Source: a virus
Virus genome (UHGV): UHGV-0148166
Strand: one strand, 5' to 3'
Length of the DNA: 39,519 nucleotides
How positions within the stretch are numbered: position 1 is the first letter of the stretch; each line of letters begins with the position of its first letter. Positions 2,481 through 4,285 of this stretch are shown one piece after another. The notes below the pieces were generated by a model. It was not told the origin of the DNA, made no database searches, and saw only the letters and a program-made list of their open reading frames with translations. Both the position numbers and the translations under genes were made by a program.

Positions 2481-3095
2481 ATGAAAATGAAAATGCAAAG
2501 TGATTTCAATTCAATGTTTGAAGAGTTCCAAAGACAGGTTGATGTTCCAGACCAATTACTAAATGCTCTTAAACGCATGGCAGAAGGACGTAATTACTAT
2601 TGGGGGTCTTCATATGAAACTGATGAAAGCCTTTCCGGAAGATTTTCTAGAGGTAAAAAGTCTTTAATACGTCCTGGAATACTCATTAACAGTATTGAAT
2701 CAATTCATTCATTGACGTGTGATTTTGATGTTGAATTTACTGATTTCATTTCTCCTGAATGGACGGTTTGTTATTTAAACGACGATTATGATTATCTTGG
2801 CGTTTATAGTTTAAGTGATGCATGGTTTAAACGTAATTTACAAAAATCAAATTTATTTTATATTGATACTACGGTAAAATTTCAGGGCAAGAAATATTTC
2901 TTTACTCTTATAGTTGATTCTGAAACGAAGCATGAAAATAAACGTATTCTTAGTAAAAAGAATATCTTAACTATTGTTGATGATCTTTTTGATAAATTCG
3001 TAGAAAATCCCAATTTTGAAAGCGATTTATTATTAGAAAAATTTGTTAAGGAATGTAGAGAATATGTCAAAGCCATCACTATACCTTCCAAGTAA
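2481..3095 (+). CDS. Hypothetical protein (204 aa) with C-terminal KFVKECREY motif shared with downstream membrane paralogs
   Basis: ORF with GGAGTAAATAGGA RBS; C-terminal motif similarity. Confidence 0.6.
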   Translation: MKMKMQSDFNSMFEEFQRQVDVPDQLLNALKRMAEGRNYYWGSSYETDESLSGRFSRGKKSLIRPGILINSIESIHSLTCDFDVEFTDFISPEWTVCYLNDDYDYLGVYSLSDAWFKRNLQKSNLFYIDTTVKFQGKKYFFTLIVDSETKHENKRILSKKNILTIVDDLFDKFVENPNFESDLLLEKFVKECREYVKAITIPSK

Positions 3096-3456
3096 ACCTG
3101 TGAAGTATGAACCAAAGCGTCAGCTAATTTCTACTGATGTGTTAATAGGTCCTGTGGTAGCTGTATCATTTGTGATTTTGGTGATTGCTGGAATGGTTAT
3201 AGACGTTATGACTGATATTGAATCTGGTGTAATATTTGGAGCAACACTAATTCTTCCATTGGTAGTTCCGCTTTTATTAGTACCTGTAAATTGGGTAGGA
3301 TACTGGTATCAAGGAAGACATTATCGTAAACGTGTACGTGATTGGAAAGCTCAGTGTAAAAAGATTAAAAAGGAACATCAGCTTAAGCTAGATATGTATG
3401 AATTTGATGAAATTATGAAATTTGTTAAGGAATCACGATGCAAAAGCCAAAACTAA
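3064..3456 (+). CDS. 2-TM membrane protein, paralog 1 (C-terminal tail KFVKESRCK)
   Basis: Two hydrophobic helices then basic tail; AAGGA RBS before ATG 3064; junction DNA nearly identical to that at 3420-3445. Confidence 0.6.
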   Translation: MSKPSLYLPSKPVKYEPKRQLISTDVLIGPVVAVSFVILVIAGMVIDVMTDIESGVIFGATLILPLVVPLLLVPVNWVGYWYQGRHYRKRVRDWKAQCKKIKKEHQLKLDMYEFDEIMKFVKESRCKSQN

Positions 3457-3800
3457 ATAAAGTCAAATATTCGCTTCCTGAGTCATTTTTAATTTTTGCT
3501 GTGGCGTTGGCTGCAGCTCTTGCGGGTAGTCTTTTTGGATTGTTAATTGACTGTCTTATTTTAAACATTGACGGCACAGTAAATATAATAGAAGTTTGGA
3601 GTGAACTTCATTATACTATAGCGATTTCATTATTTTCATTCTTTGGTATCATTTTATATTTTCATTATGATAATTTTAAAATAAATTGGCAAAGAAAAAA
3701 AGATTACAAAATACAATTAAAAGAATATAATAGCTACATGTCTTATATTGAAAATGAGTCAATGAAAGAGTTTGTGAGTGATTGTAGGAAAATTAAATGA
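3438..3800 (+). CDS. 2-TM membrane protein, paralog 2 (C-terminal tail EFVSDCRKIK)
   Basis: Two hydrophobic helices; AAGGA RBS; N-terminus MQKPKL resembles MSKPSL of paralog 1. Confidence 0.6.
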   Translation: MQKPKLNKVKYSLPESFLIFAVALAAALAGSLFGLLIDCLILNIDGTVNIIEVWSELHYTIAISLFSFFGIILYFHYDNFKINWQRKKDYKIQLKEYNSYMSYIENESMKEFVSDCRKIK

Positions 3801-4281
3801 TTTTAAAAACTCGCTGGTATGATTTAGATGATGGGGATGATGGCATTTCAGTTGATAGAGTTGACTGGAATGGTTGTTCCGAAGATATGAAAAATTTGTT
3901 GATTAGGGAGTTTAGAATGGGATATCAAGCAGCTAAGCCATTTACTGTAACAGATGATAAGTTCGTATGTATTCAAAACGGTCGCGCTAAGTTAACGAAT
4001 GCTGATTGGTTCACAGATAAGAAGGTTCTTCTGTGGTATATCATTAGTCTTCCTATATCATCGTTCGTATTTTACTTTTTTATAAAAAATCCAATGGACA
4101 GAATAGGAGATTGGATTCTTTTAACCATACTTGTTAATATTTTTACAGCAGCAGTATTATCAGGAATATGGCGTATGTTCATTGAAATGCCATGGCGTTT
4201 ACGCAGACAACAAAAGATTTTTGATGAAAAGAAATATACTCAAAATTTAAATAACTTTATCACTGAATGCAGGAAATTAAA

Positions 4282-4285
<4 letters not shown>
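3797..4285 (+). CDS. 2-TM membrane protein, paralog 3 with N-terminal soluble domain (C-terminal tail [10 protein letters not shown])
   Basis: Hydrophobic helices in C-terminal half; AGGAAA RBS; ATGA overlap with next gene. Confidence 0.6.

Follow-up and report, generated by a model that had tools for sequence, protein, structure and literature searches.

What do the small genes upstream of the lysozyme gene in the virus genome UHGV-0148166 have in common, and did they arise from one another? A first-pass annotation of this 39,519-nt stretch of DNA, called the window below, had described three consecutive open reading frames (ORFs), 3064-3456, 3438-3800 and 3797-4285, as an array of paralogs with two transmembrane (TM) helices each, built by serial duplication at the gene junctions. 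The explanation that we favour overall, at slightly better than even confidence, is a packed operon with a shared, selected tail module at the C-termini of its products, recombining junctions and fast-diverging membrane hairpins.

Megablast of positions 2400-4800 matched 514 phage records at 80-99% identity, nearly all of them Tequatrovirus, and the window is assigned to a Tequatrovirus (T4-like) genome. The region is 95-98% identical to T4-type phages and matches T4 gene for gene from e.6 to e. The three ORFs are identified as T4 e.4, e.3 and e.2, and ORF 2481-3095 as e.5. All four ORFs (130, 120, 162 and 204 amino acids (aa), respectively) are present as first annotated, and close relatives are annotated alike. 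Order, overlaps and lengths are the same as in T4, with 88-95% nucleotide identity (92% for e.3). The interval is the e.4-e.3-e.2 portion of the T-even early block e.6-e.5-e.4-e.3-(e.2)-nudE-e. In GenBank, T4 e.5, e.4, e.3 and e.2 (NC_000866 / AF158101) are labelled 'conserved hypothetical, predicted membrane protein'. The locus is ordinary if taken as a 'new paralog array', since e.4, e.3 and e.2 are long-catalogued T4-type early genes and not new.

The three ORFs belong to three separate PHROGs families, e.4 to phrog_2604 (E=5.5e-70, residues 1-130), e.3 to phrog_2330 (E=7.1e-60, residues 1-118) and e.2 to phrog_2203 (E=4.3e-78). The precomputed label PF26873 is carried by 98/98 e.4 homologues, and e.2 homologues carry PF26896. 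The PF26873 model is absent from the local Pfam copy that was scanned, and the label for the e.4 family comes from homologue annotation. Searches of e.6, e.5, e.4, e.3 and e.2 against Pfam, NCBIfam and PDB sequences returned nothing above threshold. No study of function turned up in the literature under the gene names or the identifiers in UniProt and Pfam, a search that did not extend to the 2003 review of the T4 genome.

A C-terminal tail common to e.5, e.4, e.3 and e.2

The C-terminal tails quoted in the first-pass annotation are correct, and the soluble upstream protein e.5 carries the same tail. As judged from the alignments, the four proteins have in common a module of 15-23 C-terminal residues ending hydrophobic-x-x-[F/W]-[I/V]-x-[E/D]-[C/hydrophobic]-[R/K]. 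The pattern F[IV]x[ED]CR, defined post hoc from data already seen, was found 3 times, vs 0.10 expected, in a complete 169-kb Tequatrovirus genome translated in all six frames, and it recurs independently in four other genera. All three matches lie at most 11 residues from the stop of e.5, e.3 or e.2, and a relaxed form adds e.4. In 300 shuffles there was at most one C-terminal match. In a Jiaodavirus genome the C-terminal matches of two related tail patterns all fall within the homologous block. In both genomes the motif is confined to this locus.

The tails are kept in orthologues that have diverged elsewhere, both in Mosigvirus (FIMECREY, FVKEIRCK and FIKECRK) and in Jiaodavirus (FIKYCRER, FVKEVRRK, WIRSCRK and WIKEMK). 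A five-genus alignment of e.5 (18-47% identity to the window copy) has eight invariant columns, and F188, C192, R193 and E194 supply 4/8 of them. A soluble 102-aa ORF 3' of nudE in Jiaodavirus ends in FIAKCRAK. Because this ORF and soluble e.5 both carry the tail, the tail is not a marker of a membrane family. In the 16 tails compared, hydrophobic residues or Cys predominate at positions -3, 0, +1 and +4, and +5 is basic without exception (R in 14, K in 2). The spacing i, i+3, i+4, i+7 corresponds to one face of a putative helix.

The ratio of nonsynonymous to synonymous change (dN/dS) was obtained from eight Tequatrovirus sequences. In e.4 it was 0.68 for the hairpin (residues 28-75, 3145-3288) vs 0.14 for the C-tail, in e.3 0.40 vs 0.11, and in e.2 0.56 (residues 76-130, 4022-4186) vs 0.07. 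Neighbouring genes gave 0.05-0.13, and the proportion of synonymous differences (pS) in the C-tails was 0.12-0.21. Nucleotide diversity (pi) peaks in the three hairpins, at 0.11-0.17 in e.4, up to 0.15 in e.3 and 0.06-0.11 in e.2, and is at its minimum (0.01-0.03) at the junctions. Across genera the tail codons vary: Arg is encoded by AGA, AGG, CGA, CGT or CGC, Cys by TGT or TGC, and F is sometimes W. Since the residues are kept while the codons vary, the tail module is under purifying selection at the amino-acid level.

Two other stretches resemble the tail. The e.6 C-terminus (2404-2439), V-Q-E-Y-I-N-S-L-K, fits a degenerate tail pattern and is conserved across genera, and is a weak lead. 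A widened pattern that covers it was rejected as unspecific, with 22 genome-wide matches, 8 of them C-terminal vs 3 expected. Within e.4, W-K-A-Q-C-K-K-I-K (3343-3369, residues 94-102) resembles the e.3 and e.2 tails, and W94 and C98 are invariant in four genera. This internal element may represent a former C-terminus or a second motif copy.

Membrane hairpins and the question of paralogy

Kyte-Doolittle hydropathy over 19-residue segments bears out the two hydrophobic helices reported for each of the three ORFs, with values of 2.75/2.55 in e.4, 2.47/1.78 in e.3 and 1.96/2.16 in e.2. No hydrophobic 19-residue segment was found by this measure in e.5, e.6 or nudE. The N-terminal charge is +5/-2 in e.4 and +4/-1 in e.3. 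The loops contain no K/R and 3 D/E in e.4 and e.3, where they are 9-14 residues long, and 2 K/R and 2 D/E in e.2. The C-tails are strongly basic (+15/-7 in e.4, +10/-7 in e.3, +9/-4 in e.2). Because this charge distribution fits the positive-inside pattern, an N-in/C-in orientation is predicted, and the three proteins are probably small helical hairpins of the inner membrane. Each probably exposes a short loop to the periplasm, an acidic one in e.4 and e.3, and keeps a basic C-terminal segment of 35-55 residues in the cytoplasm.

Are the hairpins descended from one another? Pairwise BLASTP between e.4, e.3 and e.2 gave weak or marginal tail matches only. In Smith-Waterman alignments scored against 2000 shuffles, the TM hairpins (Z = -0.9, 0.4 and -1.3) and the N-termini (Z = -0.9 to 0.6) had no excess likeness; the C-tails gave Z = 1.8 to 4.8. 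Profiles built from Tequatrovirus only (about 1.3 effective sequences, Neff) were uninformative, and other genera had to be added. With cross-genus profiles of e.5, e.4, e.3 and e.2, the tails in register were the best and only match in 5/6 pairs. The hhalign tail matches were e.4/e.3 (23 columns, E=6.4e-6), e.2/e.3 (18 columns, E=2e-5), e.5/e.3 (17 columns, E=2.5e-4), e.5/e.2 (15 columns, E=6.3e-4) and e.4/e.5 (10 columns, E about 0.06). For e.4/e.2 the first profile run missed the tail register, and a repeat with a broader e.2 profile found it (7 columns, E about 0.05). When the e.4 profile was run exhaustively as a hidden Markov model against 1.84 billion representatives, it gave 6 matches, all of them e.4 forms or fragments, and none that bridged to e.3 or e.2.

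Gene order was then compared across genera. The order e.6-e.5-e.4-e.3 is found in Tequatrovirus, Mosigvirus, Gaprivervirus and Jiaodavirus, so any duplication would predate these genera. Dhakavirus JS10 has e.6-e.5-e.3 without e.4, and its e.2 homologue (31.5% identity by tblastn, 37% by alignment) lies 4.3 kb further on and ends in FIEECRK. Orthologues of e.4 are about 52% identical in Mosigvirus and about 30% in Gaprivervirus and Jiaodavirus. Records with at least 80% identity by tblastn numbered 503 for e.5, 499 for e.4, 495 for e.3 and 448 for e.2. Copy number in relatives had been proposed as a check on the array; no gain was seen, and variation was by loss, truncation and fusion.

A true paralog array is a possibility to which we assign a minority share of belief. 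One two-TM ancestor would have been duplicated by unequal recombination at the junction of tail and ribosome-binding site (RBS), after which the membrane parts diverged and e.2 gained an N-terminal domain; the e.5 tail would come from the first breakpoint in its 3' end. Such an origin has to contend with hairpins and N-termini no more alike than shuffles, the three PHROGs families, an order fixed in four to five genera with no recent serial expansion visible, copy number that varies by loss only, and a tail borne by unrelated soluble proteins. It draws on the identical architecture (two TM helices plus a basic tail) of consecutive, overlapping, same-strand genes with a shared tail, and on tail-to-tail unit spacings of 379, 353 and 485 nt. 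In addition, e.4 and e.3 have similar N-terminal ends, M-x-K-P-x-L...V-K-Y (17 columns in hhalign, E=0.018, not significant alone), and in a naturally occurring e.4::e.2 chimera TM1 is fused in frame to TM1. Some 45 nt can be aligned between the e.5/e.4 and e.4/e.3 junctions, the first codons of the next gene among them; the 16-nt DNA identity within them adds little independent evidence, because the peptide KFVKE and the Shine-Dalgarno requirement are given. TM evolution (dN/dS 0.4-0.7) is fast enough to erase old similarity.

Shared tail, architecture and adjacency therefore survive from the first-pass description, and similarity beyond the tail does not: only the last 15-23 residues align, the outcome that the annotation itself had said would count against an array. 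On these alignments e.4, e.3 and e.2 are not demonstrably full-length paralogs. The junction is repeated and does recombine, but because only the tail is similar, serial duplication as the origin cannot be shown.

A different set of genes occupies the place of Tequatrovirus e.2 after e.3 in Mosigvirus, Gaprivervirus and Dhakavirus. It consists of 3-5 tandem small soluble ORFs ending G-x-W-[V/Y]-x-S-S-x-x-C (L003 3731-4525, L005 3691-4705, L023 1137-2381). These ORFs make a clearer tandem paralog family than e.4-e.2.

Junction DNA and the loss of cassettes

Each downstream ATG has a Shine-Dalgarno sequence 5-10 nt ahead of it, either AAGGAR (Lys-Glu) or AGGAAA (Arg-Lys), and the cistrons overlap stop to start by ATGA or by 19-32 nt. 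The e.3 ATG begins within the Arg codon of the e.4 tail motif and runs into the next (Cys) codon. Because the tail codons supply the Shine-Dalgarno sequence of the next cistron and the stop/start overlap, the e.5-e.2 block is probably one tightly packed, translationally coupled early operon. The best-supported account of its products is one soluble protein plus two or three predicted membrane hairpins that share a C-terminal motif. The first-pass annotation had reported that DNA across the junctions is itself repeated. A 16-nt exact repeat is real, and the positions given for it (3040 and 3415) are slightly off (Table 1).

The junction of tail codons, RBS and next start is a repeated unit, as first proposed, and also a recombination substrate. 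In L013 the e.3 tail is fused to the nudE start through a crossover inside TGCAGGAAA, by which e.2 is precisely excised while the reading frame and the ATGA overlap survive. An uninterrupted 141-nt match to this e.3-nudE junction occurs in at least 25 phage records of GenBank, RB32, RB33, PP01 and Yersinia PST among them. Because Dhakavirus has e.2, the e.2 absences are most simply read as losses. Other variants include a Mosigvirus form without e.3, the in-frame e.4::e.2 chimera, from which e.3 is deleted, and an e.4 without the entire hairpin. The T4 reference e.2 is 102 aa, frameshifted by a 1-nt deletion in an A-run (window equivalent 4083-4089), in contrast to the intact 162-aa copy of the window. 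Truncated e.2 forms of 102 and 122 aa are common in databases. In L013, a frameshift has also broken e.5 (2417-3032) into two ORFs of 145 and 92 aa, a further decay of the block in an e.2-less Tequatrovirus.

For positions 3064-4285, comparison with L002, L010, L011, L012, L013 and T4 showed that the nearest relative shifts by gene. L010 is 99.7% identical in e.4 and 91.7% in e.3, and L002 is 91% identical in e.4 and 99.6% in e.2. Because the nearest relative changes from gene to gene, mosaic exchange between genes is indicated. The nearly identical junctions, where diversity is also lowest, serve as sites of in-frame homologous crossover through which whole gene cassettes are lost. Cassettes may be gained there as well; only deletions were seen.

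We regard the PeSL cassettes of T4-type phages as the closest conceptual precedent for this behaviour. These cassettes (Arbiol et al. 2010, PMC2839356; Comeau et al. 2014, PMC4122927) are intergenic units of a promoter and a stem-loop terminator. The likeness lies in short conserved gene-boundary sequences in hyperplastic regions, at which recombination inserts, deletes and swaps whole nonessential genes (PMC2839356). Deletion of whole genes by boundary-repeat recombination was found here too, in the e.2 removal described above. However, no flanking intergenic sigma-70 early promoter and terminator was found at e.5/e.4, e.4/e.3 or e.3/e.2; here the genes overlap without intergenic DNA. Because the repeat consists of coding sequence, Shine-Dalgarno sequence and ATGA, crossovers stay in frame and keep translational coupling. 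No description of the tail motif or of junction-mediated cassette loss was found in the searchable literature, many subscription papers lying outside the search.

Could the tail be a by-product of this DNA? In that account the cassette of Shine-Dalgarno sequence, spacer, ATGA overlap and recombination linker is what matters, and the peptide itself is functionless. Between genera, however, the codons differ and the amino acids persist (five codons for Arg, both for Cys, F exchanged for W), and F, I/V, C and R are retained whether the Shine-Dalgarno sequence sits in the Lys-Glu or in the Arg-Lys codons. The hydrophobic positions -3, 0 and +1 are needless for an RBS. The motif is retained where no downstream gene is coupled (L004 4660-4968; L003 4588-4827) and in ORFs with a stop 25-30 nt from the next gene, and the genome-wide motif scan found that other overlapping T4 genes do not encode it. 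These observations outweigh, in our judgement, the facts that each downstream Shine-Dalgarno sequence sits in motif codons, that the junctions are the least variable DNA of the region, synonymous sites included (pS=0 in the e.5 tail), and that they are proven crossover sites. A pure RBS artefact is unlikely, and we give a functionless peptide little weight.

Table 1. Features of the window, in nucleotide positions of the 39,519-nt stretch.
Feature	Position	Strand	Remarks
segB-like	35-673		T4 match
tRNA-Arg	677-753		T4 match; sole Rfam match
e.6	1846-2439		T4 match
e.5, soluble, 204 aa	2481-3095	+	phrog_2607, E=2.6e-110; final 32 nt overlap e.4 start
16-nt exact junction repeat AAATTTGTTAAGGAAT, copy 1	3039-3054	+	Invariant in 8 Tequatrovirus sequences
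e.5 tail motif F-V-K-E-C-R	3042-3059	+	K-E codons AAGGAA are the likely e.4 Shine-Dalgarno sequence
e.4, 130 aa, predicted two-TM hairpin protein	3064-3456	+	phrog_2604
e.4 predicted TM1-loop-TM2 hairpin, residues 27-77	3142-3294	+	Hypervariable core
16-nt exact junction repeat AAATTTGTTAAGGAAT, copy 2	3418-3433	+
e.4 tail motif F-V-K-E-S-R	3421-3438	+	AAGGAA is the e.3 Shine-Dalgarno sequence
e.3, 120 aa, predicted two-TM hairpin protein	3438-3800	+	phrog_2330; 19-nt overlap with e.4, 4-nt overlap (ATGA) with e.2
e.3 predicted TM hairpin, residues 16-75	3483-3662	+	Variable core
e.3 tail motif F-V-S-D-C-R	3771-3788	+
e.3/e.2 junction TGTAGGAAAATTAAATGA	3783-3800	+	Cys-Arg-Lys-Ile-Lys-stop; AGGAAA is the Shine-Dalgarno sequence, ATGA the stop/start overlap
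e.2, 162 aa	3797-4285	+	phrog_2203; 75-aa N-terminal soluble domain, predicted two-TM hairpin, tail
e.2 predicted TM hairpin, residues 77-128	4025-4180	+	Variable core
e.2 tail motif F-I-T-E-C-R	4256-4273	+
nudE, translationally coupled downstream cistron	4267/4282-4722	+	Listed from the ATG overlapping the e.2 stop (4282)
e.2/nudE junction TGCAGGAAATTAAAATGA	4268-4285	+	15/18 identical to 3783-3800; crossover partner in the e.2 deletion of other phages
e (lysozyme)	4760-5254		T4 match
denV	5314-5730		T4 match

Several observations concern gene starts and the surroundings of the block. The e.5 start is probably 2487 (MKMQSDF), as in T4, and not 2481; AGGA lies 6 nt upstream of 2487. The nudE start is most likely the ATG at 4282 (MKTLSAG), and the T4-annotated ATG at 4267 is less likely; e.2-less phages and Jiaodavirus start at the equivalent of 4282. 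Between e.6 and e.5 there is a stem-loop (2442-2463, AAGGGGCTTCGGCCCCTT) that is GC-rich with a UUCG-type loop and no coding-strand U-tract. It is the only intergenic structure of the block and is labelled a terminator in some relatives. Promoter-like matches in the region numbered 24 vs 18.6 +/- 4.3 in shuffles, not above chance. GenBank gives homologues of e.3, e.4 and e.6, as well as some of the small ORFs nearby, such varied names as 'sulfurtransferase', 'host specificity protein', 'DNA primase', 'major capsid protein' and 'tail completion protein'. Such names for e.3, e.4 and e.6, 'sulfurtransferase' on e.3 and e.4 among them, had no support in any family scan and were set aside. A likeness of coiled-coil e.6 to PspA/IM30 was considered and dropped after a four-genus profile searched against PDB sequences missed PspA and Vipp1.

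Expression and possible roles of the products

The supplement of PMC9697503 classes the T4 e.2-e.6 RNAs as early. It lists detection of the e.4 and e.5 proteins as early, of e.2 and e.6 as middle and of e.3 as late. In the CRISPRi-ART guide table (PMC11879866 supplement), the guides shown against T4 e.2-e.6 are listed as 'Not Fit', which we read as no fitness defect on knock-down. We infer an accessory role; the genes are dispensable in laboratory culture and often lost.

Class II holins have two TM helices, an N-in/C-in orientation and a highly charged C-terminal tail, and T4 Imm is a small, early, dispensable two-TM inner-membrane protein. The T4 holin is gene t, located away from the e.2-e.6 block. 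The first-pass annotation had thought lysis timing, superinfection exclusion or anti-defence plausible; the analysis yielded no evidence in favour of any of the three. Holin-, antiholin- or pinholin-like lysis regulators, or Imm-like exclusion proteins, beside the endolysin gene e would fit the predicted hairpins, which match the class II layout by hydropathy and charge pattern only, resemble Imm in being small, early and dispensable, and lie about 0.5-1.7 kb upstream of e; but such a role is unlikely, and we give it hardly any credence, because expression is early (RNAs, and the e.4 and e.5 proteins) and holins are late, the guides shown are 'Not Fit', natural loss, truncation and fusion are frequent, the frameshifted e.2 of T4 included, and family scans, the sole means by which Imm was compared, gave no holin or Imm family in Pfam at E<=1 and no relevant NCBIfam family.

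Under the favoured explanation of a packed operon with a shared, selected tail, the TM hairpins would be mainly membrane anchors under relaxed constraint and the cytoplasmic tail would be the working part of e.4, e.3 and e.2. The tail could be a common docking helix, by which, early in infection, the co-expressed proteins bind each other, e.5 or a common partner in the cytoplasm or at the membrane periphery. We put the docking role forward tentatively, well short of even confidence. More speculatively, and with considerable doubt on our part, the tail helix may be a portable, locus-specific short linear motif, an 'address tag' that would direct a set of co-translated early proteins to one partner, of host or phage origin, on the inner membrane face.

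Several points weigh against these proposals. The e.4 tail aligns with e.2 and e.5 only at E about 0.05, and the e.4 motif lacks Cys at +4. AlphaFold 2 (AF2) predicts a helix at the tail with low confidence, at a predicted local distance difference test score (pLDDT) of 48 for e.2 (10-sequence alignment) and 39 for e.5 (single sequence), so that support for the tail helix is weak. The TM helices are predicted from hydropathy only. Tequatrovirus junctions are conserved at synonymous sites too (pi 0.01-0.03). For this reason part of the conservation is due to nucleotide-level constraint, whether it comes from the RBS, from the overlap of reading frames or from homogenising recombination, and both protein-level and nucleotide-level constraint on the tail are real. 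The hairpin dN/dS of 0.4-0.7 would fit relaxed constraint or diversifying selection alike. Under diversifying selection, function would reside in the hairpins and not in the tails.

If the tag exists, the tagged set would comprise soluble e.5, the hairpins e.4, e.3 and e.2, and the extra ORFs in other genera. The tag would double as an in-frame recombination linker, because its coding sequence holds the ribosome-binding site of the next gene, and new cassettes would plug in already tagged and coupled. The impact is limited, because the block is dispensable in the laboratory without a known phenotype. Nevertheless, four orphan early genes of the best-studied lytic phage gain a testable handle in one short conserved cytoplasmic motif. 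The block is also a clean natural example of how repeats in coding junctions let a phage drop genes with reading frames and translational coupling unbroken.

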